DNA of 64,000 bases from the NCBI RefSeq assembly GCF_044647545.1, contig NZ_CP172818.1. One strand, given 5' to 3'. The position numbers and the translations under genes are program-made. Origin of the DNA: Escherichia coli. GTDB lineage: Bacteria > Pseudomonadota > Gammaproteobacteria > Enterobacterales > Enterobacteriaceae. Numbering within the stretch: position 1 is the first letter of the stretch; the number at the start of each line of letters is the position of its first letter. Under the pieces are notes generated by a model. It was not told the DNA's origin, did no database searches, and was given only the letters and a program-made list of their open reading frames with translations. Below, one piece after another: positions 6,812 to 62,480 of this stretch.

Positions 6812-6919
6812 GGTATTCCTTACCGGAGAAATTATAAGCCCAACAACAATACGCCTGTGGCATTGTTCGCTCAAACTTATCGCGAGTGATTTGGCTCACA
6901 CTCCGGTAAAGATTCCCCA

Positions 6920-8658: not shown

Positions 8659-10004
8659 AATTTACCCAACGTCTTAGTCTGCGAGTCAGGCTGACGCTAA
8701 TCTTTTTAATTCTGGCCTCGGTGACCTGGCTGTTTTCCAGCTTTGTCGCCTGGAAACAAACAACGGATAACGTCGATGAGTTGTTCGACACCCAACTGAT
8801 GCTGTTTGCCAAACGGTTAAGTACGCTCGATCTCAACGAAATCAACGCGGCGGATCGCATGGCACAGACGCCAAATAAATTAAAACACGGTCATGTTGAT
8901 GACGATGCGCTGACCTTTGCCATCTTTACCCACGACGGCAGAATGGTCCTTAACGATGGCGATAACGGAGAAGATATTCCTTATAGCTATCAGCGGGAAG
9001 GTTTTGCTGACGGGCAACTGGTCGGTGAAGACGATCCCTGGCGTTTTGTCTGGATGACCTCACCTGATGGCAAATATCGCATCGTTGTTGGTCAGGAATG
9101 GGAATACCGTGAAGACATGGCGCTGGCGATTGTTGCCGGACAATTGATCCCGTGGCTGGTCGCACTGCCGATTATGTTAATCATCATGATGGTACTACTG
9201 GGTCGTGAACTCGCGCCGCTGAACAAACTGGCGCTGGCACTACGTATGCGTGACCCAGACTCGGAAAAACCACTAAACGCGACGGGCGTACCCAGCGAAG
9301 TGCGTCCACTGGTTGAGTCGTTGAATCAACTGTTCGCCCGCACACATGCGATGATGGTTCGTGAACGACGCTTTACCTCCGACGCAGCTCACGAACTTCG
9401 TAGCCCGTTAACGGCGCTGAAAGTGCAAACCGAAGTTGCTCAGCTCTCTGACGATGATCCGCAGGCGCGGAAAAAAGCGCTGCTCCAATTACATTCCGGG
9501 ATCGATCGTGCTACTCGTCTGGTTGATCAACTGCTCACGCTATCGCGGCTGGACTCACTGGATAACCTTCAGGACGTCGCGGAGATCCCGCTTGAAGATC
9601 TCCTGCAATCGTCGGTGATGGATATTTACCACACGGCGCAGCAGGCGAAAATTGACGTGCGACTGACACTCAATGCCCACGGCATCAAACGCACCGGACA
9701 ACCGCTGTTGCTAAGTTTGTTGGTACGAAACCTTCTGGATAACGCCGTGCGCTACAGTCCACAGGGCTGCGTGGTGGACGTCACGCTGAATGCCGATAAT
9801 TTCATCGTGAAGGATAACGGCCCCGGTGTGACACCAGAGGCACTGGCGAGAATTGGCGAACGCTTCTATCGCCCACCCGGACAAACCGCTACCGGCAGTG
9901 GACTTGGGCTATCGATTGTCCAGCGAATCGCCAAATTGCATGGCATGAATGTTGAGTTTGGGAATGCGGAACAAGGTGGATTTGAGGCGAAGGTAAGCTG
10001 GTAA
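8655..10004 (+). CDS. qseC: Sensor histidine kinase QseC
   Basis: 449 aa; two TM segments, H-box AAHELRSPL, HATPase domain; translationally coupled to qseB. Confidence 0.93.
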
Positions 10005-10382: not shown

Positions 10383-10735
10383 ATGTTAGCACTCTCTAAA
10401 AAAGTCCAGTCGGAGATTTGGTTTTCAACCCCCATAAATCTATTTAAAATAATCTGCGTAACACGCTGATATTTTCATTTTTAGTTATTCAACACCACAA
10501 TTATCAACTCGCAGAAAGTCCACACCAACGTTGTAAATTAACCCTGTGCTAGTTGGAATGATGAGAAATTGCTATCAGTATTGTCATTTTCAGAAAATAT
10601 TTATCCCGCATCGGTGAATCAGAGCAAGATCAGACTTTTGCTAAATTCGCAAAAGACTTTGCACATTTTGCTAATTTCACCGTACCGCTCTGTGACGTAC
10701 TATAGTCGGCAAACGTCTCACCTTGAGGTTAAAAA

Positions 10736-11347: not shown

Positions 11348-11662
11348 ATGATTACAGTAATCGCAGAAATCCGTACTCGTCCTGGTCAACATCACCGTCA
11401 GGCAGTGTTGGATCAGTTTGCTAAAATCGTTCCAACCGTACTGAAAGAAGAAGGTTGCCACGGCTATGCGCCAATGGTGGATTGCGCTGCTGGCGTGAGT
11501 TTCCAGTCTATGGCACCGGATTCTATCGTGATGATTGAGCAGTGGGAAAGCATCGCGCATCTTGAAGCGCATCTGCAAACCCCGCACATGAAAGCATATA
11601 GCGAAGCCGTAAAAGGTGACGTGCTGGAGATGAATATTCGTATCCTGCAGCCGGGGCTTTAA
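11348..11662 (+). CDS. ygiN: ABM-domain quinol monooxygenase
   Basis: 104-aa ORF 30 bp downstream of mdaB, preceded by aggag SD. Confidence 0.9.
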   Translation: MITVIAEIRTRPGQHHRQAVLDQFAKIVPTVLKEEGCHGYAPMVDCAAGVSFQSMAPDSIVMIEQWESIAHLEAHLQTPHMKAYSEAVKGDVLEMNIRILQPGL

Positions 11663-11709
11663 TCCTGCCTTGTTTGCCCGGCCATCCTGACCGGGCAATG
11701 TTCTTTCCT

Positions 11710-13605
<1,896 letters not shown>

Positions 13606-13630
13606 TTAAGTTAGCAATTCGAGTTGATCG

Positions 13631-14212
13631 TCAGAGATGGTGCAGACCAAGAAAATCGACGATCGGGTTGAAATAATCTTCGAAGCCCGTGAATGCGTGG
13701 TTGCCGCCTTCTATGACAGTCTGGCGGCAGGAAGCGTAGTACGCCACCGCCTGGCGGTAATCCAGCACTTCATCTCCCGTCTGTTGCAGCAGCCAGATCA
13801 AATCCGGCGCTTCCAGCGGGTCAATCTGCATGACTTTGAGATCGTAAATATGGCGTGACTCTAGCACATATTGCTGCCCGGTGTAGGGGTTCTCGTTCTG
13901 ACCGAGATAGTCCGTTAGCAGTTCAAACGGGCGCACCGCCGGGTTGACCACCACTGCGGGCAACATAAAACATTGCGACAACCAGGTGGCGTAATATCCC
14001 CCCAGTGACGAACCGACAATACCCAGCGAATCGCCGCCATGTTCCAGGACAATGGATTCCAGCAGTTCTGCCGCATCGGAAGGATACGGCGGCAACTGCG
14101 GAATGATCATCTCTACGTCAGGGTGATGTTCCGCCAACCAGTTTTTTAACAAGCTCGCTTTTGCAGAGCGCGGCGAGCTGTTGAAACCGTGTAAATAAAG
14201 AAGCGTAGACAT
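13631..14212 (-). CDS. yqiA: Esterase YqiA (alpha/beta hydrolase)
   Basis: 193-aa ORF; matches YqiA. Confidence 0.88.
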
Positions 14213-15039
14213 CAGTAGCCTTCTGAAGCGGTATCAGGTTGGAAACGTGTGTCCGCCAGGCGATGCACCTCGGTGGTCAGCGTGCCATCAGCATGTAACT
14301 CGAGAGTACGCCAGCCGGGCGCGATGGTGTCCAGCGTAAAGTTGGAACAGTGCGGCTTAAACTGCACACAGGTCGACGGCGTTGCCAGCAGGCGGCGACC
14401 GTTCCAGTCGAGATCCAGCTCCTGATGAATATGACCGCACAGCAAGTATTTGACGTGCGGAAACTTCGCCAGCACGGTATCCAGTTCGCCCGCGTTACGC
14501 AGGCTGTGTTGATCAAGCCAACTACAACCCGCAGGTAGCGGATGATGATGCAGCAGCAGCAACGTATGGCGTTCTGGCGCATCGGCCAGTTTACGTTCCA
14601 GCCACTCAAGCTGAAACTCGCTCAGCTCACCGTGCGGCACGCCAAACACCTGGCTATCCAGCAACAGGATTTGCCATTGCTCACCAATAAACACGCGCTT
14701 CGCCGGGGAGATACCCGCATCCTGTAACGCGCTGTACATCGCGGGCTGGAAATCGTGGTTGCCCGGCAGCCAGACGCAGGGCGCACGAAAACTTGCGATG
14801 CCTTCAGCGAAATGCTGATAGGCCGCAGAGGATTGATCCTGCGCTAAATCACCTGTCGCGACAATCAGGTCGAATTCGTGCTGGTGTGGCCGAATCGCCT
14901 CCAGCACCGCCTGGTAGCTTTCCCAGGTGTTTACCCCTAACAGGGCTTCGTGCTTTTGTGCAAACAGGTGAGTGTCGGTAATTTGTAAAATCCTGACTCT
15001 GGCCTCACCAGCCAGAGGAAGGGTTAACAGGCTTTCCAA
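14212..15039 (-). CDS. cpdA: 3',5'-cyclic AMP phosphodiesterase
   Basis: 275 aa; calcineurin-like metallophosphoesterase motifs (GDLAQD, GNHD); stop overlaps yqiA start. Confidence 0.92.
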
Positions 15040-15063
15040 ATGGTGTCCTTAGGTTTCACGACG

Positions 15064-15486
15064 CTAATAAACCGGAATCGCCATCGCTCCATGTGCTAAA
15101 CAGTATCGCAACCAGTCCGCTAGAAACTGATTAATTTGATGCTTTTCGTCGCGTTGATGCAACTTTTTATTAGGATAATCATACCGCGCTTTGAAGCGAA
15201 AAATCTGCTGGCTTGAACACACTTCAGCCACCATCGCGTCATGATACAGACGCACCGTCATTGACGGAAGGCTCCAGTAACTGATCGCGGGCGCAGTCTG
15301 TTCTATTGTCACCAGGGTAGTGTATCGGGTCGATTCCACAATCGTCAGCCGATATTGTGCGTTTGCCACCTGATAGCTTACAGTTTCGCCGGGTGCGTCA
15401 TTGCGCGGTAACAAACGGCGCAATTGTGAAAAGTTCATCTCGCACAGGCGCATCATTTCAGGAAAGTCAGGTGTGTAACGCTTCAT
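15064..15486 (-). CDS. yqiB: DUF1249 family protein YqiB
   Basis: 140-aa ORF immediately downstream of nudF on the minus strand. Confidence 0.85.
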
Positions 15487-16116
15487 TTATGCCCACTCAT
15501 TTTTTAACGCTTGATGATGCAGCTGCAGCCATTGCAAAGCGATGACCGACGCTGCGTTGTCGATTTTCCCCTCTTCTACCCACTGGTATGCCTGTTCCCG
15601 GCTTACCACATGAACGCGAATATCTTCGTTTTCATCAGCCAGACCGTGAATACCGCTTGCGGTCGTGGCGTCCACTTCGCCCACCATAATTGACGAACGC
15701 TCACTGGTGCCCCCCGGGCTTGCCAGGAAACTTAACACCGGTTTGGTCCGTTTGACTATCAGCCCCGCCTCTTCAATCGCTTCGCGACGGGCAACATCTT
15801 CCACACTTTCACCCTCTTCAATCATCCCGGCAACCATCTCCAGTAGCCAGGGGGTTTCGCTAGTGTCGTACGCGGCAATTCGAATCTGCTCAATCAGCAC
15901 AACTTCATCACGCACTGGGTCAAAGGGTAGCAAGACTGCGGCGTGACCGCGCTCAAAAATTTCCCGCCGTACCTCATGACTCATTTGCCCGTTGAATAGA
16001 CGATGACGAAATCTATAAAGATCTAATGAAAAAAAGCCGCGATAAAGTGTTTCTCGTGCAATAATTTCTACATCGTTTTTGCCAAATGTAACGGGCAGGT
16101 TGTCTGGCTTAAGCAT
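15487..16116 (-). CDS. nudF: ADP-ribose pyrophosphatase (Nudix hydrolase)
   Basis: 209 aa; Nudix box region [22 protein letters not shown]. Confidence 0.92.
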
Positions 16117-16217
16117 TGTTAATGTCCTGGCACTAATAGTGAATTAAATGTGAATTTCAGCGACGTTTGACTGCCGTTTGAGCAGTCATGTGTTAAATTG
16201 AGGCACATTAACGCCCT

Positions 16218-16240
16218 ATGGCACGTAACGCCAACCTTTT
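16218..16240 (+). promoter_or_regulatory. Putative MarA/SoxS/Rob box in the tolC promoter region
   Basis: atggcacgtaacgccaacctttt resembles the marbox consensus (GCAC...AAA spacing) about 80 bp upstream of the tolC ATG; tolC is a known mar/sox/rob regulon member. Confidence 0.45.
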
Positions 16241-16320
16241 GCGGTAGCGGCTTCTGCTAGAATCCGCAATAATTTTACAGTTTGATCGCGCTAAATACTG
16301 CTTCACCACAAGGAATGCAA

Positions 16321-17802
16321 ATGAAGAAATTGCTCCCCATTCTTATCGGCCTGAGCCTTTCTGGTTTCAGTTCGTTGAGCCAGGCCGAGAACCTGATGCA
16401 AGTTTATCAGCAAGCACGCCTTAGTAACCCGGAATTGCGTAAGTCTGCCGCCGATCGTGATGCTGCCTTTGAAAAAATTAATGAAGCGCGCAGTCCATTA
16501 CTGCCACAGCTAGGTTTAGGTGCAGATTACACCTATAGCAACGGCTACCGCGACGCGAACGGCATCAACTCTAACGCGACCAGTGCGTCCCTGCAGTTAA
16601 CTCAATCCATTTTTGATATGTCGAAATGGCGTGCGTTAACGCTGCAGGAAAAAGCAGCTGGGATTCAGGACGTCACGTATCAGACCGATCAACAAACCTT
16701 GATCCTCAACACCGCGACCGCTTATTTCAACGTGTTGAATGCTATTGACGTTCTTTCCTATACACAGGCGCAAAAAGAAGCGATCTACCGTCAATTGGAT
16801 CAAACCACCCAACGTTTTAACGTGGGCCTGGTAGCGATCACTGACGTGCAGAACGCCCGCGCACAGTACGATACCGTGCTGGCGAACGAAGTGACCGCAC
16901 GTAATAACCTTGATAACGCGGTAGAGCAGCTGCGCCAGATCACCGGTAACTACTATCCGGAACTGGCGGCGCTGAATGTCGAAAACTTTAAAACCGACAA
17001 ACCACAGCCAGTTAACGCGCTGCTGAAAGAAGCCGAAAAACGCAACCTGTCGCTGTTACAGGCACGCTTGAGCCAGGACCTGGCGCGCGAGCAAATTCGC
17101 CAGGCGCAGGATGGTCACTTACCGACTCTGGATTTAACGGCTTCTACCGGGATTTCTGACACCTCTTATAGCGGTTCGAAAACCCGTGGTGCCGCTGGTA
17201 CCCAGTATGACGACAGCAATATGGGCCAGAACAAAGTGGGCCTGAGCTTCTCGCTGCCGATTTATCAGGGCGGTATGGTTAATTCGCAGGTGAAACAGGC
17301 ACAGTACAACTTTGTCGGTGCCAGCGAGCAACTGGAAAGCGCGCACCGTAGCGTCGTGCAAACCGTGCGTTCTTCCTTCAACAACATTAATGCATCTATC
17401 AGTAGCATTAACGCCTACAAACAGGCCGTGGTTTCCGCCCAAAGCTCATTGGACGCGATGGAAGCGGGTTACTCGGTTGGTACGCGTACCATTGTTGATG
17501 TGTTGGATGCGACCACCACGCTGTACAACGCTAAGCAAGAGCTGGCAAATGCGCGTTATAACTACCTGATTAACCAGCTGAATATTAAGTCAGCTCTGGG
17601 TACGTTGAACGAGCAGGATCTGCTGGCACTGAACAATGCGCTGAGCAAACCGGTTTCCACTAATCCGGAAAACGTTGCCCCGCAAACGCCGGAACAGAAT
17701 GCTATTGCTGATGGTTATGCGCCTGATAGCCCGGCACCCGTCGTTCAGCAAACATCCGCACGCACTACCACCAGTAACGGCCATAACCCTTTCCGTAACT
17801 GA
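16321..17802 (+). CDS. tolC: Outer membrane efflux channel TolC
   Basis: 493 aa from ATG 16321 (signal peptide MKKLLPILIGLSLSGFSSLSQA); the 506-aa frame has 13 extra upstream codons. Confidence 0.95.
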   Translation: MKKLLPILIGLSLSGFSSLSQAENLMQVYQQARLSNPELRKSAADRDAAFEKINEARSPLLPQLGLGADYTYSNGYRDANGINSNATSASLQLTQSIFDMSKWRALTLQEKAAGIQDVTYQTDQQTLILNTATAYFNVLNAIDVLSYTQAQKEAIYRQLDQTTQRFNVGLVAITDVQNARAQYDTVLANEVTARNNLDNAVEQLRQITGNYYPELAALNVENFKTDKPQPVNALLKEAEKRNLSLLQARLSQDLAREQIRQAQDGHLPTLDLTASTGISDTSYSGSKTRGAAGTQYDDSNMGQNKVGLSFSLPIYQGGMVNSQVKQAQYNFVGASEQLESAHRSVVQTVRSSFNNINASISSINAYKQAVVSAQSSLDAMEAGYSVGTRTIVDVLDATTTLYNAKQELANARYNYLINQLNIKSALGTLNEQDLLALNNALSKPVSTNPENVAPQTPEQNAIADGYAPDSPAPVVQQTSARTTTSNGHNPFRN

Positions 17803-17949
17803 TGACGACGACGGGGCTTCGGCCCCGTCTGAACGTAAGGCAACGTAAAGATACGGGTTATCTGCCGCATTCCTCCCCCTTCTCGCTTCAATTTCGACCA
17901 GCCATCCTCTATTCTGATGGGTATTTACCACTGGTCCCGGAAGACAAAA

Positions 17950-18621
17950 ATGAAACGGACAAAATCCATACGCCACGCATCGTTCCGCAAAAACTGGAGC
18001 GCACGCCATCTGACACCAGTCGCTCTCGCGGTTGCCACTGTTTTTATGCTGGCGGGCTGTGAAAAGAGTGATGAAACAGTGTCTCTCTATCAAAATGCTG
18101 ACGACTGTTCAGCTGCAAACCCAGGCAAAAGCGCCGAATGTACCACCGCGTACAACAATGCGCTGAAAGAAGCCGAACGTACTGCGCCGAAATACGCCAC
18201 CCGTGAAGACTGTGTTGCTGAATTTGGTGAAGGTCAGTGCCAGCAGGCACCAGCCCAGGCTGGCATGGCACCAGAAAACCAGGCGCAGGCCCAGCAATCC
18301 AGCGGGAGTTTCTGGATGCCGCTGATGGCCGGTTACATGATGGGGCGTCTGATGGGCGGCGGCGCGGGATTTGCACAGCAGCCGCTGTTCTCCTCGAAAA
18401 ACCCGGCCAGCCCGGCTTACGGTAAATATACCGACGCGACCGGTAAAAACTATGGCGCAGCCCAGCCAGGCCGCACCATGACCGTACCGAAGACGGCAAT
18501 GGCACCAAAACCGGCGACCACCACCACCGTTACTCGTGGCGGTTTTGGTGAATCTGTTGCCAAACAAAGCACTATGCAGCGTAGCGCAACCGGCACCTCT
18601 TCTCGTTCAATGGGTGGCTGA
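17950..18621 (+). CDS. ygiB: DUF1190 family protein YgiB
   Basis: 223 aa from Met at 17950 ([12 protein letters not shown]...), lipobox-like LAGC; Gln/Ala/Gly-rich. Confidence 0.85.
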
Positions 18622-18626
18622 TACCG

Positions 18627-19787
18627 ATGGAAAGAGTCAGTATTACCGAGCGCCCGGACTGGCGCGAAAAAGCCCACGAATACGGTTTCAATTTTCACAC
18701 CATGTACGGCGAGCCGTACTGGTGTGAAGATGCTTACTACAAGTTGACCCTCGCTCAGGTTGAAAAGCTGGAAGAAGTCACCGCCGAACTGCACCAGATG
18801 TGCCTGAAAGTGGTGGAAAAAGTGATCGCCAGCGATGAGCTGATGACCAAATTCCGCATACCAAAACACACCTGGAGTTTTGTGCGCCAGTCATGGCTGA
18901 CGCACCAGCCATCGCTTTATTCGCGTCTTGATCTGGCGTGGGATGGCACTGGCGAACCTAAGCTTCTGGAAAATAACGCCGATACGCCAACGTCACTATA
19001 CGAGGCGGCGTTCTTTCAGTGGATCTGGCTGGAAGATCAGCTTAACGCCGGTAACTTGCCGGAGGGCAGCGACCAGTTTAACAGTTTGCAAGAAAAGCTG
19101 ATCGATCGCTTCGTTGAGCTGCGTGAACAGTATGGCTTCCAGTTGCTGCATCTCACCTGCTGTCGCGACACGGTGGAAGATCGCGGAACCATTCAGTATT
19201 TGCAGGACTGCGCGACGGAAGCTGAAATCGCTACCGAGTTCCTCTACATCGACGATATCGGGTTAGGTGAAAAAGGTCAGTTCACGGATTTACAGGATCA
19301 GGTGATTTCCAACCTGTTCAAGCTGTATCCGTGGGAATTTATGTTGCGTGAGATGTTCTCCACCAAGCTGGAGGATGCAGGCGTACGCTGGCTGGAACCG
19401 GCGTGGAAGAGCATTATCTCCAACAAAGCGCTTCTACCGCTACTGTGGGAGATGTTCCCGAATCACCCGAACCTGCTGCCCGCTTATTTTGCGGAAGATG
19501 ATCATCCGCAAATGGAAAAATATGTGGTTAAACCGATCTTCTCCCGTGAAGGCGCAAACGTGTCGATCATTGAGAACGGCAAAACCATTGAAGCAGCGGA
19601 AGGTCCGTATGGCGAAGAAGGGATGATTGTTCAGCAATTCCACCCGTTACCGAAATTCGGCGACAGCTATATGCTGATTGGTAGCTGGCTGGTGAACGAT
19701 CAACCTGCCGGAATTGGCATTCGTGAAGACCGTGCATTGATCACCCAGGATATGTCTCGGTTTTATCCGCATATTTTTGTTGAGTAA
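18627..19787 (+). CDS. ygiC: Glutathionylspermidine synthase-like ATP-grasp protein YgiC
   Basis: 386-aa ORF 6 bp after ygiB. Confidence 0.88.
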
Positions 19788-19802
19788 GCTATCCCCTTTT
19801 TT

Positions 19803-19957
19803 CTAACACCACAATACCCCCCCACCACAAAACAAAAAAAACAAAAAAAAAAAAAAAAAAAAAACAAAAAAAACAACCAAAAAAAAATAAACAAAACCAA
19901 AAAAACAAATCCCAATACCCGAGGCACTCGCCATCCGGTTTAAAAAAAAAAAAATTA
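19803..19957. repeat. Low-complexity A/C-rich tract containing an A22 homopolymer (19843-19864) and an A13 run (19942-19954)
   Basis: Between 19811 and 19910 the top strand is almost exclusively A and C; non-coding, sits between the convergent ygiC and ygiD stops. Confidence 0.9.
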
Positions 19958-20773
19958 TTAACCTATCTGCACCGACAGCATACTTAAACTGCCCATTTCT
20001 ATACCATCGACCGGAATGGTAATTGGCTCCTGCCCATCCCACGCACCTAAGACATACAACAACGGCAGATAGTGCTCTGGCGTTGGGTTCGATAACGCGC
20101 CACCTTCATGGTCGAGATAATTCACCAGAGGATGTTGTTCCACCGGCCCTTGCCACGTCAGATTCGCTTTCACATACTCATTAAACGACGTCGCCCACGG
20201 ATACGGTGAACTATCACCGTGCCACTTCACTGTACGCAGGTTATGCACCACGTTGCCACTGGCGACCAACATTATCCCTTCATCACGCAGCGCCGCGAGT
20301 TTGCGCCCCATTTCGAAATGCCAGGCGGCAGGTTTGCTACTGTCGATACTCAACTGCACCATCGGGATATCGGCGTCAGGATACATCTTAATCAGTACGC
20401 CCCACGAGCCGTGGTCGAAGCCCCAGGCTTCTTTATCCAGCGTCACAGGGACCGGCGCTAACAGCTCAACCAGATGCTGTGCCAGCGCAGGTGAACCCGG
20501 AGCAGGATAATGCGTATCGTACAGCGCCTGCGGGAAGCCACCAAAGTCATGAATCGTGGGCGGCGTCTCCATCGCGGTCACTCCTGTTCCACGGGTAAAC
20601 CAGTGAGCCGAAACCACCACTATTGCTTGCGGGCGTGGCAATGTCATCCCCAACGTCTGCCAGCTGCGGGTATACAAATTATCTTCCAGCACGTTCATCG
20701 GACTACCGTGACCTAAAAACAATGCTGGCATACGTGTTGAAGACATGATGATATCCTTAACTAAAGGTGTCAT
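19958..20773 (-). CDS. ygiD: Extradiol ring-cleavage dioxygenase (LigB/DOPA-dioxygenase family) YgiD
   Basis: 271-aa ORF; start uncertain (alternative Met codons at residues 10 and 15). Confidence 0.85.
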   Translation of the reverse strand: MTPLVKDIIMSSTRMPALFLGHGSPMNVLEDNLYTRSWQTLGMTLPRPQAIVVVSAHWFTRGTGVTAMETPPTIHDFGGFPQALYDTHYPAPGSPALAQHLVELLAPVPVTLDKEAWGFDHGSWGVLIKMYPDADIPMVQLSIDSSKPAAWHFEMGRKLAALRDEGIMLVASGNVVHNLRTVKWHGDSSPYPWATSFNEYVKANLTWQGPVEQHPLVNYLDHEGGALSNPTPEHYLPLLYVLGAWDGQEPITIPVDGIEMGSLSMLSVQIG

Positions 20774-20888
20774 TTTGATATCCTCACAATACGCTTGTTC
20801 GGCGGAGTAAGAACCCGGATAACAATGATGATGATCATCAGTTATTTTGACGATCTGCCTGAAGGTGAAGATTTATAAGGAGTTGTCG

Positions 20889-21662
20889 ATGTCAGTACCT
20901 CTCATTCTGACCATACTGGCGGGGGCAGCCACGTTTATTGGCGCGTTTCTCGGCGTTCTCGGGCAAAAACCCTCGAACCGCTTACTGGCGTTTTCGCTAG
21001 GATTTGCGGCGGGGATCATGTTGCTCATCTCATTAATGGAAATGCTTCCTGCCGCATTAGCCGCCGAAGGAATGTCACCTGTGTTGGGTTATGGAATGTT
21101 TATCTTCGGTCTGCTTGGCTATTTTGGCCTGGACCGCATGTTGCCACATGCGCATCCGCAGGATTTAATGCAAAAATCGGTGCAGCCGTTGCCAAAATCG
21201 ATCAAGCGCACAGCCATTCTGCTCACTCTCGGCATCAGTCTGCATAACTTCCCGGAAGGGATTGCCACCTTTGTCACGGCGAGCAGCAACCTAGAGCTGG
21301 GCTTTGGCATCGCACTGGCCGTTGCGTTACACAATATTCCTGAAGGTCTGGCGGTTGCAGGCCCGGTTTACGCGGCAACGGGGTCTAAACGCACCGCGAT
21401 TCTTTGGGCGGGGATTTCTGGACTGGCAGAAATTCTTGGTGGTGTGCTGGCGTGGTTAATCCTCGGTAGCATGATTTCCCCGGTGGTCATGGCGGCAATC
21501 ATGGCGGCGGTTGCAGGAATTATGGTAGCGCTCTCGGTTGATGAATTAATGCCGCTCGCCAAAGAGATTGACCCTAATAATAACCCCAGCTATGGCGTAC
21601 TATGTGGAATGTCAGTGATGGGATTCAGTTTAGTGCTGCTACAAACGGCGGGAATTGGTTAA
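20889..21662 (+). CDS. zupT: ZIP family zinc/divalent metal transporter ZupT
   Basis: 257 aa from ATG 20889 preceded by SD taaggag; multi-TM with HNxPEG motifs. Confidence 0.92.
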
Positions 21663-21719
21663 AAGCAACATCAGAAGTTGTCCAGCGCATGGACAACTTC
21701 TGCCAGCTTCACTAAAGCC

Positions 21720-21890
21720 TTATTCTACCTTTTCGGCTGTCTCTTCTCTCGTACTGTTTAAGTATTTGTTCCGCGCTTCAAGCAGTGCGTCTCTGTCCTG
21801 GCGAAACGCCCGACAATAACGTTTCAAATGCAGGAAATAACCCACAACAACAAGAGCAATCAATACAATCCAGTACCAGGCGATAAACAT
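21720..21890 (-). CDS. Hypothetical small single-pass membrane protein
   Basis: 56-aa product MFIAWYWIVLIALVVVGYFL... with one TM helix and a charged C-terminal tail; gggtaaaagg lies directly upstream of this Met; a longer 64-aa frame starts at 21914; may correspond to a K-12 small protein but I cannot name it confidently. Confidence 0.45.
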   Translation of the reverse strand: MFIAWYWIVLIALVVVGYFLHLKRYCRAFRQDRDALLEARNKYLNSTREETAEKVE

Positions 21891-22151
21891 CCTTTTACCC
21901 TTAATATTTAACAATACTAAACATTTAGCGCATAAATTTCACATATCCTTTTTCGGATATATTCATATGGTCGCATAATAACGGAACAATTATATGATTT
22001 TGATCATAATGAAAAAGAATGCCTGATATTAATGAAATTTTCTCATAGAAAGAGAAGCGGAATTAACATCTTGCATAGCAGGGAAAAATAAAAACCGAAG
22101 CCTGCTACAACTTCGGTTTCTTGATTAAGGCAGTAAATTAAGCAGCGGTTT

Positions 22152-22805
22152 TCAGCTGGCTTTACGCTCATGTGCCTGACGGTATGCCACCAGGTCTTCA
22201 ATAGTCACGAGCGCCATATTGTGTTTATTGGCAAACTCAATGCACTCTGGTGCACGCGCCATCGTGCCATCGTCATTAGTCAGCTCACACAGCACACCAG
22301 CCGGTTTAAAGCCTGCCAGCGTCATTAGATCAATAGTTGCTTCAGTATGGCCGCCACGCGTCAGTACTCCACCTGCCTGCGCGCGAAGTGGGAAAACGTG
22401 GCCCGGGCGATTCAGATCAGAAGGTTTTGCGTCATCGGCAATCGCTGCGCGAACGGTCGTAATACGGTCAGCGGCAGAAACACCGGTAGTCACACCTTCA
22501 GCCGCTTCAATGGTCACGGTAAAACCGGTGCCATAGGCGCTGGTGTTATTTTCTACCATCATTGGCAGATCGAGTTGTTTACGGCGATCTTCAGTAATGC
22601 ACAGGCAAACAATACCGCTACCGTGGCGAATGGTCAGCGCCATCTGCTCAACGGTCATGGTTTCTGCCGGGAAGATCATATCGCCTTCGTTTTCACGGTC
22701 TTCATCATCAAGCACCATTACACCGCGTCCTTCACGCAGCGCAGCCAGTGCATTTTCAACACGTTCGAAAGGCGTACCAAAAGAGGAAAGTAGCGTCTGA
22801 TTCAT
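22152..22805 (-). CDS. ribB: 3,4-dihydroxy-2-butanone 4-phosphate synthase
   Basis: 217-aa ORF; matches RibB. Confidence 0.95.
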
Positions 22806-23060
22806 GGTAAAAAAACCTCACTAAAATTATGGTTACCAGAATCAGGGCAGTCTTAGGAGTGGCGGCATATAGCCAAAATAACGTGAGCGGGTCCATGCCC
22901 GACAGAATCGTTACTCTCTCCCATCCGGACTCTAACCGTCGGCCCCGGAATTACACCGGATCTGCTGTCCTTTGAGTTCGCACCCAAAGCGCTCGCGGGC
23001 TTTCAACTGAGTTGATTTACCGCCGGTGGGGAATTTCGCCCCGCCCTGAGAATAAGCGGA
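22806..23060 (-). promoter_or_regulatory. ribB leader containing FMN riboswitch (RFN element; sroG region)
   Basis: Minus-strand leader contains the conserved RFN segments ...agggcggggcgaaattccccaccggcggtaaa...agcccgcgagcg...ccgacggttagagtccggatgggagagagt... directly upstream of ribB. Confidence 0.7.
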
Positions 23061-23178
23061 TTCACTATAACGCTAATGATTAGCGGCAGCAACGCATAGC
23101 TTCACATAATTCTGGTTTATGACTTACCCTTATCGCACTACAATGGCACTCAACACCTATCAGTACAGGGAAACTACA

Positions 23179-23463
23179 ATGATTGACCCGAAAAAAATTG
23201 AGCAAATCGCTCGCCAGGTTCACGAATCAATGCCTAAAGGAATCAGGGAGTTCGGGGAAGATGTGGAGAAAAAAATCCGCCAAACCCTACAAGCGCAGCT
23301 GACGCGTCTCGATCTGGTAAGCCGCGAAGAATTCGACGTTCAGACGCAAGTCCTGTTACGGACTCGTGAAAAACTGGCGTTACTGGAGCAGCGCATCAGT
23401 GAACTGGATTTGAAAAAACCAACACAAAAACGGGCCAGACGGCCCGTAATATCAGTGTTCTAA
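23179..23463 (+). CDS. ubiK: Ubiquinone biosynthesis accessory factor UbiK (YqiC, BMFP coiled-coil family)
   Basis: 94-aa product from ATG 23179 ([16 protein letters not shown]...), SD caggga upstream; the 114-aa frame is an upstream extension. Confidence 0.8.
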
Positions 23464-23652
23464 TTCAAGTTCTCTGGTTTGCATCATTTGTTGGCAATAC
23501 CAGGCATAACGTGCGCAAAACCAGGTTCTATGTTCTTCATCCATGTTACCAGTAACGGCCAGAATATCGACCGGGCGACCTTCTGCGTGCATTCTGGCAA
23601 AACTACGCGCCAGGAAATCGAAATTATTTAAAGAATTAAGACTATGATCCAT
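23452..23652 (-). CDS. glgS: Surface composition regulator GlgS
   Basis: 66-aa product [57 protein letters not shown]...; 3' end overlaps the ubiK 3' end by 12 bp. Confidence 0.88.
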
Positions 23653-23920: not shown

Positions 23921-24550
23921 ATGATTTTATTCGCCGACTATAACACCCCTTATCTTTTCGCTATTTCCTTTGTACTGTTGATCGGCCTTTTAGAAATTTT
24001 TGCGCTTATCTGCGGTCACATGCTCTCCGGTGCACTTGATGCACATCTTGACCATTATGATTCCATAACCACAGGTCATATTAGCCAGGCACTTCATTAT
24101 CTCAATATCGGAAGATTGCCAGCTCTCGTCGTTCTTTGCTTACTGGCTGGTTTTTTTGGTCTTATTGGCATCCTGTTGCAGCATACCTGCATCATGGTCT
24201 GGCAATCACCACTCTCGAACCTGTTTGTGGTTCCTGTCAGTTTACTGTTTACGATTATTGCGGTGCATTATACCGGTAAAATAGTTGCGCCCTGGATTCC
24301 ACGCGATCATAGCTCAGCTATTACAGAAGAAGAATATATTGGTAGCATGGCGTTAATTACCGGTCATCAAGCCACTTCAGGTAATCCCTGCGAAGGAAAA
24401 CTCACCGATCAATTTGGCCAAATACATTATTTACTACTGGAGCCTGAAGAAGGAAAAATTTTCACTAAAGGAGACAAAGTGTTAATTATTTGCCGACTTT
24501 CTGCAACTCGATATTTGGCGGAAAACAATCCCTGGCCCCAAATATTGTAA
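23921..24550 (+). CDS. yqiJ: NfeD-like inner membrane protein YqiJ
   Basis: 209-aa multi-TM ORF immediately upstream of the flotillin-like gene. Confidence 0.85.
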
Positions 24551-24576: not shown

Positions 24577-26238
24577 ATGGATGATATTGTTAATTCTGTG
24601 CCCTCCTGGATGTTTACCGCGATTATTGCCGTATGCATTCTGTTTATTATTGGAATTATTTTCGCCAGGCTCTATCGTCGCGCTTCGGCAGAGCAAGCTT
24701 TTGTTCGTACTGGTTTAGGTGGGCAAAAAGTGGTAATGAGCGGTGGCGCAATCGTGATGCCGATCTTTCATGAAATAATCCCCATCAATATGAATACTCT
24801 GAAGCTGGAAGTCAGCCGCTCAACCATTGATAGCCTGATTACGAAAGATCGTATGCGCGTCGATGTCGTTGTCGCTTTCTTTGTGCGGGTAAAACCGTCA
24901 GTGGAAGGTATTGCCACCGCCGCCCAGACGCTGGGGCAACGCACCCTGTCGCCTGAAGACTTACGTATGTTGGTTGAAGATAAATTTGTCGATGCCCTCC
25001 GTGCAACAGCTGCACAAATGACCATGCATGAGTTACAGGATACCCGCGAGAACTTCGTGCAGGGCGTACAAAATACCGTTGCTGAAGATCTGTCGAAAAA
25101 CGGCCTGGAACTGGAAAGCGTTTCACTTACCAACTTTAACCAGACGTCGAAAGAACATTTCAATCCTAACAACGCCTTTGACGCCGAAGGTTTAACCAAG
25201 CTGACGCAGGAGACGGAGCGCCGTCGTCGCGAACGTAACGAAGTTGAACAGGATGTAGAAGTTGCGGTGCGTGAGAAAAACCGTGATGCACTTTCGCGCA
25301 AGTTGGAGATTGAACAACAAGAAGCGTTTATGACGCTTGAGCAGGAGCAGCAGGTTAAAACCCGTACCGCTGAGCAGAATGCGAAAATTGCGGCTTTTGA
25401 AGCTGAACGTCGTCGTGAAGCAGAGCAGACGCGAATTCTGGCTGAACGACAGATTCAGGAAACGGAAATCGACCGCGAACAGGCCGTCCGTTCCAGAAAA
25501 GTTGAAGCTGAACGTGAAGTTCGCATTAAAGAGATCGAACAGCAGCAGGTCACCGAAATCGCCAACCAGACGAAATCGATCGCTATTGCCGCCAAATCGG
25601 AACAGCAGTCACAAGCGGAAGCGCGTGCCAACCTTGCACTTGCAGAAGCGGTAAGCGCCCAGCAAAACGTAGAAACCACTCGCCAGACCGCAGAAGCCGA
25701 TCGTGCTAAACAAGTTGCCCTAATCGCTGCCGCGCAGGATGCAGAAACCAAAGCGGTTGAACTGACCGTGCGGGCGAAAGCAGAGAAAGAAGCCGCAGAG
25801 ATGCAGGCGGCGGCGATCGTTGAGTTAGCCGAAGCAACACGCAAAAAAGGCCTGGCGGAAGCAGAAGCACAACGTGCGCTGAACGACGCTATCAACGTAC
25901 TTTCTGACGAGCAAACCAGCCTTAAATTCAAACTGGCATTATTGCAGGCGCTGCCTGCGGTAATTGAGAAATCCGTGGAACCAATGAAGTCTATCGACGG
26001 CATCAAAATTATTCAGGTCGATGGGCTGAATCGTGGTGGCGCTACGGGTGATGCAAACACGGGTAATGTGGGGGGCGGAAACCTGGCAGAACAAGCGTTA
26101 TCAGCCGCACTCTCTTACCGCACACAGGCACCGCTGATTGACTCCTTGCTCAATGAAATTGGCGTTTCAGGCGGCTCACTGGCGGCATTGACTTCATCCT
26201 TAAGCTCAACAACTCCCGTCGAAGAAAAAGCAGAGTAA
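24577..26238 (+). CDS. yqiK: Flotillin-like SPFH/band-7 domain protein YqiK
   Basis: 553 aa; N-terminal TM, SPFH domain, long E/A/Q/R-rich coiled coil. Confidence 0.9.
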   Translation: MDDIVNSVPSWMFTAIIAVCILFIIGIIFARLYRRASAEQAFVRTGLGGQKVVMSGGAIVMPIFHEIIPINMNTLKLEVSRSTIDSLITKDRMRVDVVVAFFVRVKPSVEGIATAAQTLGQRTLSPEDLRMLVEDKFVDALRATAAQMTMHELQDTRENFVQGVQNTVAEDLSKNGLELESVSLTNFNQTSKEHFNPNNAFDAEGLTKLTQETERRRRERNEVEQDVEVAVREKNRDALSRKLEIEQQEAFMTLEQEQQVKTRTAEQNAKIAAFEAERRREAEQTRILAERQIQETEIDREQAVRSRKVEAEREVRIKEIEQQQVTEIANQTKSIAIAAKSEQQSQAEARANLALAEAVSAQQNVETTRQTAEADRAKQVALIAAAQDAETKAVELTVRAKAEKEAAEMQAAAIVELAEATRKKGLAEAEAQRALNDAINVLSDEQTSLKFKLALLQALPAVIEKSVEPMKSIDGIKIIQVDGLNRGGATGDANTGNVGGGNLAEQALSAALSYRTQAPLIDSLLNEIGVSGGSLAALTSSLSSTTPVEEKAE

Positions 26239-26545: not shown

Positions 26546-26659
26546 CAGAGGGGGAGAAATCCTCCCTCACCCTTGTTCCTTTACTTGGGGTAGGTTGAAA
26601 AAACAACAGCGTCAATAGGCCTGCCAGGTTCGAAGCGAGATCTGTGAAGCGCTTTCCGG

Positions 26660-34469: not shown

Positions 34470-34530
34470 CTAAAAACAGAAATCCCTAGGTCGGATAAGA
34501 CGCACAAGCGTATCCGACACTATTCCTCAA

Positions 34531-46903: not shown

Positions 46904-46940
46904 CAAAGGCTGACGAGAAATCGTCAGCCTTTTTCTTTTT
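46904..46940 (+). terminator. Intrinsic terminator downstream of ileX
   Basis: Hairpin ggctgacga gaaa tcgtcagcc followed by tttttcttttt. Confidence 0.75.
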
Positions 46941-46949
46941 ATATATCAG

Positions 46950-47714
46950 TTACTTTGCGTGCCAGTAAGCCGCTGCACGTACCCGCTGTGGGTCATACTG
47001 TTCCGCTTCAAAGCGGCGGCTTAAATTCTTAACGACTTTGCCTTCGCCGGTTATCCAGATGAAGTAATCATCGGCAGGGATTTGCATCTGCGCCAGACGC
47101 GCATCTACCGCCTGCTCATCATGCGCCAGCCATTCGATATTAAAACCATCAAGGTGCGCGAGATAATCCTGGCAGGCGTGATCCCGCACGCTAACCAGTG
47201 CGCTAACTTGCGGTTTAACAGCAAGTTTGCTCAACGTTTCCAGGCGGCGGCGCAGTGCGGGCATTCCGGATTCATCGCAGACATACAGCTGATACGCGTA
47301 ATCCTCTGGCACCACCAGCGAACCGCGCGGACCTGCCACCGTGAGTTTATCGCCCGGTTGCGCCTGCATTGCCCAGCTGCTGGCGACGCCACCGTCGTGA
47401 ATAAAGAAATCAATCGCCAGTTCATGGCGTAGTTCGTCATACAGCGGCGTATAGTCACGCGACGGTGGGCGTGGTCCTTCCGGCCAGACGATGCCCTCTT
47501 CCGTTACCGTTGGCGGCACAAAGTGAGCATCAGATTGAGGAAAGAAGAGTTTGCTGTGATCGTCAAAGCCGCGCGATGTAAAACCGTCCAGCGCCTCGCC
47601 GCCAAGGACAATGCGCTGAAAACCGGCGCTAATACGCTCAGCGCGTAGCACAGTCAATTCACGGAAGCGCAGATCATTGCGAACGCGCTGCGGGTAGCGG
47701 GGGGAGTTATTCAT
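46950..47714 (-). CDS. yqjH: NADPH-dependent ferric-chelate (siderophore) reductase
   Basis: 254-aa ORF, FAD-binding siderophore-interacting family. Confidence 0.9.
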   Translation of the reverse strand: MNNSPRYPQRVRNDLRFRELTVLRAERISAGFQRIVLGGEALDGFTSRGFDDHSKLFFPQSDAHFVPPTVTEEGIVWPEGPRPPSRDYTPLYDELRHELAIDFFIHDGGVASSWAMQAQPGDKLTVAGPRGSLVVPEDYAYQLYVCDESGMPALRRRLETLSKLAVKPQVSALVSVRDHACQDYLAHLDGFNIEWLAHDEQAVDARLAQMQIPADDYFIWITGEGKVVKNLSRRFEAEQYDPQRVRAAAYWHAK

Positions 47715-47764
47715 TGTTATCGCCTTCGTGATAGTAATCAGATATATCTAAATAAATTTCGCAA

Positions 47765-47790
47765 ATGATAATGATTGTTAATCATGATAA
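47765..47790. promoter_or_regulatory. Fur box in the yqjH-yqjI divergent promoter region
   Basis: tgataatgattgttaatcatgataa closely matches the Fur consensus gataatgataatcattatc. Confidence 0.7.
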
Positions 47791-47854
47791 ATGCAAGCGA
47801 TTTGTAGAACTGATATATCTGAAGTATGAGAAGACATTCAGCGTCGTAGCAAGG

Positions 47855-47890
47855 CTGCCGGATGCGGCGTGAACGAATTATCCGGCCTGG
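47855..47890. repeat. REP-like palindromic element
   Basis: gctgccggatgcggcgtgaacgaattatccggcctgg resembles enterobacterial REP sequences. Confidence 0.45.
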
Positions 47891-47990
47891 ATGTGAGGTG
47901 TATTCACGTTTAAAAATCATTTTTATACTTGCAAAAGCGCTCATATCAGATATAAATTAGATATATCTAATTAAGCAAAAGGAGGCTGAT

Positions 47991-48614
47991 ATGAGCCATC
48001 ATCACGAAGGGTGTTGTAAACATGAAGGCCAGCCACGCCATGAAGGCTGCTGCAAAGGTGAGAAGTCAGAACATGAGCACTGCGGACACGGTCACCAGCA
48101 TGAACACGGTCAATGCTGCGGTGGTCGCCACGGTCGCGGCGGCGGTCGTCGGCAGCGTTTCTTTGGTCACGGTGAATTGCGTCTGGTGATTCTGGATATT
48201 CTCTCGCGCGATGACAGCCACGGTTACGAATTGATTAAAGCGATTGAGAATCTAACCCAGGGGAATTACACCCCAAGCCCGGGCGTCATCTACCCAACGC
48301 TGGATTTTCTGCAGGAGCAGTCGCTGATTACCATCCGCGAAGAGGAAGGTGGTAAGAAGCAGATTGCACTGACCGAACAGGGCGCGCAGTGGCTGGAAGA
48401 AAACCGCGAACAGGTGGAGATGATCGAAGAACGCATCAAAGCGCGTTGCGTTGGTGCTGCACTCCGCCAGAACCCGCAAATGAAGCGGGCGCTGGATAAT
48501 TTTAAAGCGGTGCTGGATTTACGCGTCAACCAGAGCGATATCACTGATGCACAAATAAAAAAGATCATTGCGGTGATCGACCGCGCCGCTTTTGATATTA
48601 CCCAACTGGATTAA
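47991..48614 (+). CDS. yqjI: PadR-family metal-responsive transcriptional repressor YqjI
   Basis: 207 aa; His/Cys/Gly-rich N-terminus (MSHHHEGCCKHEG...HEHCGHGHQHEHGQCCGG), PadR winged-helix. Confidence 0.9.
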   Translation: MSHHHEGCCKHEGQPRHEGCCKGEKSEHEHCGHGHQHEHGQCCGGRHGRGGGRRQRFFGHGELRLVILDILSRDDSHGYELIKAIENLTQGNYTPSPGVIYPTLDFLQEQSLITIREEEGGKKQIALTEQGAQWLEENREQVEMIEERIKARCVGAALRQNPQMKRALDNFKAVLDLRVNQSDITDAQIKKIIAVIDRAAFDITQLD

Positions 48615-48700
48615 CGGATGCGGCGTACCCCTACCCCCCCCGTAGGCCTGATAAGATGCGCCAGCATCGCATCAGGCATTGTGCTCCAACCGCCGGATCC
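48615..48700. repeat. REP element(s) between convergent yqjI and aer
   Basis: cggatgcggcgta... and gtaggcctgataagatgcgccagcatcgcatcaggc palindromes typical of REP/BIME. Confidence 0.7.
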
Positions 48701-52472: not shown

Positions 52473-62383
<9,911 letters not shown>

Positions 62384-62392
62384 TTAGCAACG

Positions 62393-62480
<88 letters not shown>

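Follow-up and report, generated by a model that had tools for sequence, protein, structure and literature searches.

Probable technical origin of a ubiK-glgS overlap in a single Escherichia coli assembly

The ubiK-glgS junction in the window

Do the convergent genes ubiK and glgS of Escherichia coli overlap naturally in strains without the Yqi fimbrial cluster, or is such an overlap peculiar to one genome? The question is raised by a 64,000-nucleotide stretch of DNA (the window; contig NZ_CP172818.1 of assembly GCF_044647545.1), for which a preliminary description reported that the two open reading frames share 12 bp on opposite strands; reading the sequence bears this out, with correct coordinates. 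The same description stated that K-12 carries a fimbrial-like segment between these genes, and MG1655 indeed has ygiL, an IS2 transposase, the usher gene yqiG, yqiH and yqiI there, in a ubiK-glgS interval of 6,608 bp. The window lacks this segment, as had also been described: both the list of open reading frames and the sequence itself are free of fimbrial and IS sequence between ubiK and glgS. Gene order in the window is ribB(-), FMN riboswitch, ubiK(+), glgS(-), yqiJ(+) and yqiK(+), and the features of the locus are as follows; adding 21299 to a coordinate of the FDAARGOS_497 locus gives the window coordinate.

22152-22805, minus strand: ribB, the upstream neighbour; an open reading frame identical to the annotated ribB of FDAARGOS_497
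about 22909-23057, minus strand: FMN riboswitch, identical to the annotated riboswitch of FDAARGOS_497
23179 (ATG) to 23461-23463 (TAA), plus strand: ubiK, as read from the sequence
23179-23408, plus strand: native part of ubiK, codons 1-76 plus the first two bases of codon 77
23407-23463, plus strand: frameshift-derived UbiK tail of 18 residues, from the translation, with its stop TAA at 23461-23463
23409-23419, plus strand: junction filler TTTGAAAAAAC, standing in place of 72 bp in the relatives (alignments)
23430-23447, minus strand: stem-loop ACGGGCC-GTCT-GGCCCGT followed by TTTTTGTGTTGGTTTTTT (terminator scan and folds)
23452-23652, minus strand: glgS (66 aa), intact; ATG at 23652-23650, stop at 23454-23452
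23452-23463, both strands: the 12-bp overlap of the ubiK and glgS open reading frames, as read from the sequence
23921-24550, plus strand: yqiJ, open reading frame
24577-26238, plus strand: yqiK, open reading frame

The native part of ubiK is 100.000% identical to the corresponding segments of ECONIH1 and FDAARGOS_497, whose ubiK genes are 300 nt long, code for 99 aa ending in the tail EARNNSVADLQSPPAIPPIDKAE, and stop 34 bp before the glgS stop. When the window is aligned to these relatives, TTT at 23409-23411 stands in place of 64 bp from the end of ubiK, which correspond to its final 22 codons, and the next 8 bp contain two substitutions, T>A at 23415 and G>C at 23419; on balance 61 bp are lost and the frame is shifted. 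The resulting junction sequence is GAACTGGATTTGAAAAAACCAACAC, and the junction 25-mer is unique within the window. Native UbiK sequence ends at residue 76, the native tail and stop are missing, and the frameshifted reading frame crosses the glgS terminator hairpin to end at a fortuitous TAA 12 nt inside glgS. The 12-bp overlap is thus present because a private 61-bp frameshifting lesion removed the native ubiK stop. As to the possibility, raised in the preliminary description, that the ubiK stop had been mis-called, a stop does stand at 23461-23463 and the genes do overlap, but it is a product of the frameshift and the native one is gone. The other partner is unaffected: glgS DNA in the window is identical to that of ECONIH1, its stop reads 'tca' on the plus strand (that is, TGA), and its product matches Pfam GlgS (PF08971) over residues 1-66 of 66 (E=1.1e-45).

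The 94-aa UbiK of the window retains the Pfam BMFP domain (PF04380), residues 1-76 aligning with profile positions 1-75 of 77 at 93.5 bits (E=1.1e-26; gathering score 37.2 bits). A coiled-coil that mediates UbiJ binding has been predicted at residues 53-80 of UbiK, or 49-85 in the model (PMC9499169). With native sequence ending at residue 76 and a proline at residue 81 of the new tail, set against these limits, the break would clip the end of the predicted coiled-coil; a search for a solved UbiK structure by which to judge the truncation found none.

The lesion is private to one assembly. A 1.2-kb query (1201 bp) across the site has matches in 5,425 of the 5,426 complete E. coli genomes, and the ubiK and glgS halves are adjacent, with no Yqi cluster between them, in about 2,066 of the 5,426. 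All of the adjacent-site matches listed are in two pieces and occupy 1262-1263 bp for 1201 bp of query, i.e. 61-62 bp extra; a single-piece match to the window junction would have topped the ranking of genome matches. When a 101-nt query was used, the one-piece junction was found in no complete E. coli genome (5,426), and the best matches were split and spanned 162 bp. An exact-match scan of a metagenome collection returned 0 hits for the junction and 8 for the ordinary junction, which served as a positive control. At the protein level, the exact 94-aa sequence corresponds to WP_400164888.1, on record from one contig of 4,499,902 bp, and the normal 99-aa UbiK is found on at least 1000 contigs.

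The empty site, its ancestry and its terminator

The window is colinear with empty-site genomes, and in comparison with the empty site of ECONIH1 and FDAARGOS_497 it has the same gene order, the same lack of fimbrial and IS DNA, the same hairpin, the same glgS, and the same ubiK through codon 76. It differs in having a 94-aa frameshifted UbiK and a stop-to-stop gap of -12 bp, where the relatives have a 99-aa UbiK and a spacer of +34 bp. Stop-to-stop distances were also measured at outgroup ubiK loci, using one genome per species; outgroups with glgS comprise E. albertii, a divergent Escherichia, eight Citrobacter, Salmonella enterica subsp. arizonae, and two each of Superficieibacter, Pseudocitrobacter, Raoultella, and Klebsiella. 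In every outgroup possessing glgS, this gene lies convergently and directly after ubiK, and the gap is positive at all of these loci (21/21), ranging from +28 to +73 bp, with 241 bp in one Superficieibacter. Neither fimbrial genes nor an overlap of the reading frames was found between ubiK and glgS at any outgroup locus with glgS.

This spacing without fimbrial genes in the outgroups shows that adjacency with a spacer is ancestral and that the K-12 cluster was inserted, which settles whether the site is an ancestral empty one or a deletion. Absence of the Yqi cluster is both the ancestral state and an already known polymorphism, variable presence of Yqi fimbriae among phylogroups having been described previously (PMC8545135). 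The overlap, in contrast, does not come with the empty site: the other empty-site genomes examined and the outgroups have a positive gap and a full-length UbiK.

The empty-site spacer of the relatives contains an 18-nt stem-loop, ACGGGCC-AGAC-GGCCCGT. In a terminator scan and in folds, the minus strand has the stem-loop and then a U-tract, and the plus strand has the hairpin without a U-tract; the hairpin is therefore the intrinsic terminator of glgS, and both it and the minus-strand U-tract are unchanged in the window. The GGGCC/GGCCC stem is kept in most outgroup spacers. At the loci examined in Escherichia, Citrobacter, Raoultella, and Klebsiella the longer stem ACGGGCC/GGCCCGT is invariant, Salmonella differing at the outermost pair, and the 4-5-nt loop varies freely among the outgroups. 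The Citrobacter spacer has A/T tracts flanking the stem on both sides, which gives it a bidirectional look, and in E. coli the U-tract is solely on the glgS side.

Convergent gene pairs with shared terminators are described as common in E. coli in a preprint (bioRxiv 10.1101/2022.10.23.513370, citing Ju et al. 2019). The ubiK-glgS pair resembles the arrangement given there in having convergent genes with one stem-loop that would serve both 3′ ends, and departs from it in that the E. coli U-tract is on the glgS side alone and, in the window, the stem-loop lies within the ubiK reading frame; the window therefore does not show the layout of a shared terminator, in which the stem would sit between the two stops and U-tracts would be found on both strands.

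The K-12-type allele is distinct at ubiK itself. K-12 UbiK carries its own 20-residue tail and shares nothing with the ancestral type after residue 77. Upstream of the point at which the tails diverge, the K-12-type ubiK has 8 synonymous differences over the last 34 nt (K-12 locus 9540-9670 versus window 23375-23408), and on the glgS side identity between K-12 and the window is 95.6%, below the regional 97-98%. The K-12-specific tail and the 8 differences in the preceding 34 nt suggest that a foreign ubiK 3′ end came in with the Yqi island. In its flanking genes, and in the placement of the Yqi (EA/I) chaperone-usher cluster ygiL-(IS2)-yqiG-yqiH-yqiI exactly between ubiK and glgS, the K-12-type allele corresponds to the same locus as that in the window; it differs in that the window lacks the cluster and K-12 UbiK has its distinct tail.

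Private patches and structural boundaries

The whole window was compared with FDAARGOS_497, then with ECONIH1, accession NZ_CP009859.1, and then three ways with K-12. Against ECONIH1 there is 1 isolated SNP (at 1579) in about 63.6 kb, and the segments 11714-19787 (8,074 bp) and 19955-23408 (3,454 bp) are at 100.000% identity. Against this one SNP stand seven private indel or complex patches, including the ubiK lesion.

10418-10434: a substitution plus four dropouts of one base each (G, T, T, G), about 40 nt upstream of ygiZ
19788-19954: between ygiC and ygiD; a 167-nt A/C-rich low-complexity run with A22, A9, and A13 homopolymers
23409-23419: the ubiK junction
26549-26590: beside an ibs toxin gene; G6 becomes G5, with an inserted GGGG
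34471-34510: cca-bacA spacer; seven small, separate gaps make it 18 nt shorter than that of ECONIH1
48628: after nfeR; an extra C in a C-run
62459-62461: loop of a REP-like hairpin between ygjK and fadH; GCC instead of CGG, also private

ECONIH1 and FDAARGOS_497 give the same list of differences from the window at all seven patches, and they therefore do not differ at these sites. The ygiZ patch is private, with a best match of 95.9% between identical flanks, and lies at a site that cannot be aligned between K-12 and the window lineage. The cca-bacA patch is private as well, its best match in the 5,426 genomes reaching 87.4% with identical flanks, and both are clusters of separate 1-6-base dropouts, mostly of T and G. 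The change at 62459-62461 looks like a 3-nt inversion. The A/C-rich run between ygiC and ygiD is covered by 0 of the 5,426 complete E. coli genomes; at this position the relatives have a 3.7-kb assT-dsbL-dsbI island and K-12 has a 37-bp REP spacer, and the run ends as a chimera, in which a K-12-type REP arm is joined to an ECONIH1-type end. We considered the run as a possible remnant of the assT island and rejected this, local alignment to the island giving low-complexity matches only.

In the three-way comparison, K-12 and the window are colinear except at 8 structural breakpoints, and all seven private patches (7/7) fall on 7 of these 8. The patch beside ibs coincides exactly with the site of an extra ibs copy in K-12, and the single-base indel at 48628 with that of extra REP units. 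At ubiK the window retains, on both sides of the break, exactly those bases that are common to the K-12-type and ancestral-type alleles, and the bases at which the two differ are lost.

Larger segments are affected too. Three islands of the clone are missing from the window, namely the TRAP-transporter island that lies left of ftsP, the Fec-like siderophore island (7.3 kb), and assT-dsbL-dsbI. The Fec-like island, present in all close relatives, codes for a MurR/RpiR regulator, an ABC transporter, and a TonB-dependent receptor. The 53-nt ygiN-parE spacer (11661-11713) matches the K-12 empty-site sequence exactly, and the flanks around it are ECONIH1-type. The K-12-only segment mqsRA is cleanly absent at 6912-6918, with an ECONIH1-type junction. 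The source contig is 4.50 Mb, versus 5.31 Mb for ECONIH1.

Two further differences set the window apart from FDAARGOS_497. In one, the amino-acid permease gene ygjI has an 11-bp deletion at 58197, which we considered as a private lesion and rejected; it is a genuine lineage allele, common to 31 genomes, and the ECONIH1 annotation marks the gene as a frameshifted pseudogene. In the other (46939-48464, nfeF-nfeR), about 70 substitutions over about 1.5 kb separate FDAARGOS_497 from both the window and ECONIH1, a pattern that resembles a tract of recombination among the clone's relatives.

Origin of the ubiK lesion

We consider it probable that the ubiK lesion is an artefact of assembly or polishing. 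The decisive result is the three-way comparison, because all seven patches lie on structural breakpoints between K-12 and the window lineage; the same reading is favored because a window nearly clonal to ECONIH1, with its 1 isolated SNP, has seven private patches, because the junction is confined to one assembly and the spaced state is conserved in the outgroups, and because the bases kept at ubiK are those shared by both alleles and the differing ones are lost. The A/C-rich run, the dropout clusters, the missing islands, and the K-12-type spacer in ECONIH1-type flanks point the same way. Independent natural mutations, in a clone with about 1 SNP per 60 kb, would not be expected all to hit boundaries between lineages, nor to make poly-A/C filler. 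From the lesion, its privacy, the ancestral spacing, and its co-occurrence with degenerate patches at structural-variation boundaries, all of them observations on sequence, we infer the technical origin.

Such an artefact could have come about when strains were assembled together, or when the genome was assembled or polished against a template built like K-12, and the lesion would arise where the sequenced lineage and the K-12-like template or co-assembled strain cannot be aligned. In its simplest form, a consensus called on a K-12 reference, this model fits the K-12-type spacers and the missing islands and fails at the ECONIH1-type mqsRA junction and at the 130-nt A/C-rich insertion; the clean absence of mqsRA therefore means that a simple consensus on K-12 does not explain everything, and the form that we retain is a foreign template or a mixed-strain assembly. 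The window shares with local mis-assembly and consensus errors at structural-variation sites its private indel clusters, low-complexity filler, excess of indels over SNPs, and missing islands, and differs from them at the cleanly resolved K-12-only mqsRA site. Other observations also weigh against an artefact: outside the patches the consensus has no flaw, unlike that of a generally poor assembly; the record passed RefSeq annotation, so that a WP_ accession exists; and natural E. coli chromosomes can be as small as about 4.5 Mb, as in BS-01. REP-rich spacers are moreover naturally unstable, and some coincidence of changes with variable sites is expected in a real strain.

Alternatively, the lesion may be a real, strain-private complex deletion after which UbiK keeps its BMFP domain (residues 1-76) and gains a basic, frameshift-derived tail of 18 residues, a possibility that we regard as doubtful. 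The sequence does come from a deposited and annotated genome, it still has the hairpin with the U-tract on the minus strand, and one other frameshift in the window, that in ygjI, is a genuine allele of the lineage in 31 genomes. The UbiK tail is also naturally variable, K-12 and ancestral types differing after residue 77 and outgroup tails differing in both length and sequence, and a replaced tail could therefore be tolerated. This has to be weighed against a break that removes the end of the predicted UbiJ-binding coiled-coil (PMC9499169), and against the crowding of a deletion, a 3-nt insertion, and two substitutions into 11 bp of a window with one isolated SNP in about 63.6 kb. Both this signature and the placement at a structural boundary are common to the six other private patches, among them low-complexity sequence that looks non-biological.

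We also tried specific mechanisms by which such a deletion could have formed. Microhomology-mediated deletion through a GGAA/AGAA slip predicts GAACTGGAATAAAG, with a clean stop after residue 77, and the observed junction has 3 extra T and two substitutions. For template switching at a quasi-palindrome, GGAUUUGAA can pair with the downstream UUCAAGUUC, yet there is no inverted copy nearby, and we take the pairing to be a coincidence. If the deletion were real, translation of ubiK would have to pass the glgS terminator hairpin, glgS and its terminator being unaffected; a ubiK mRNA ending at 23447, before the stop at 23461-23463, would be a non-stop mRNA, with a lower level of UbiK; and the UbiK coiled-coil would be shortened. 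Its interest would then be local only: UbiK is an accessory factor of ubiquinone biosynthesis whose tail varies naturally, and a single strain would carry the variant.

Seen at the scale of the chromosome, the source could instead be a real and very recent genome-reduced derivative of an ECONIH1-like clinical clone, 4.50 versus 5.3 Mb, that has shed islands and left short scars, although we think this unlikely. We looked for an engineered scar (FRT, lox or similar) in the 53-nt and 167-nt junctions at missing islands and found no such site. Under such a reduction, the scar at ubiK would truncate UbiK and fuse its reading frame to the glgS terminator, and ubiK expression would need read-through of that terminator.

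That the junction is instead the excision scar of the ygiL-IS2-yqiGHI island, left in a K-12-like ancestor by a deletion and not an ancestral empty site, appears very improbable. K-12-type and ancestral-type alleles diverge directly after the left breakpoint, 23408, and there is a loose likeness between the filler TTGAAAAAACC and the yqiI 3′ end CCTGAAAATCACC; both flanks, however, are 100% ECONIH1-type, whereas K-12-type flanks differ by 2.3-4.4%, and by 8 of the 34 bases just left of the breakpoint. The Yqi cluster is in none of the near-identical relatives, no relative with flanks more than 99.9% identical carries it among the 5,426 genomes, and there are no IS or repeat remnants at the site.

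A reading built on the preliminary description, in which overlap is the natural state of strains without the Yqi cluster and the complementary 3′ ends let ubiK and glgS control each other by antisense, is scarcely tenable: the genes do have the hairpin in common in all empty-site strains, the lack of a plus-strand U-tract makes ubiK read-through into antisense glgS plausible, and convergent pairs with shared terminators are common in E. coli according to the preprint cited above, but the overlap requires a private frameshift, and no other empty-site genome examined and no outgroup has overlapping reading frames, the gap being +34 bp in E. coli, +28 to +73 bp elsewhere, and likewise positive in the Superficieibacter with 241 bp. 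Since the plus-strand hairpin has no U-tract, such read-through is possible in all empty-site strains, and the antisense idea adds little, both predicted transcripts sharing the 18-nt hairpin in every one of them, as is normal where convergent genes have a terminator in common.

Returning to the probable artefact of assembly or polishing, the lesion matters mainly as a caution, having already yielded a unique RefSeq protein, WP_400164888.1. If it is an artefact, the same assembly probably holds many similar false junctions and misses real islands, and inferences of gene content or pseudogenes drawn from it would be unsafe; in the organism itself, ubiK and glgS would not overlap at all.
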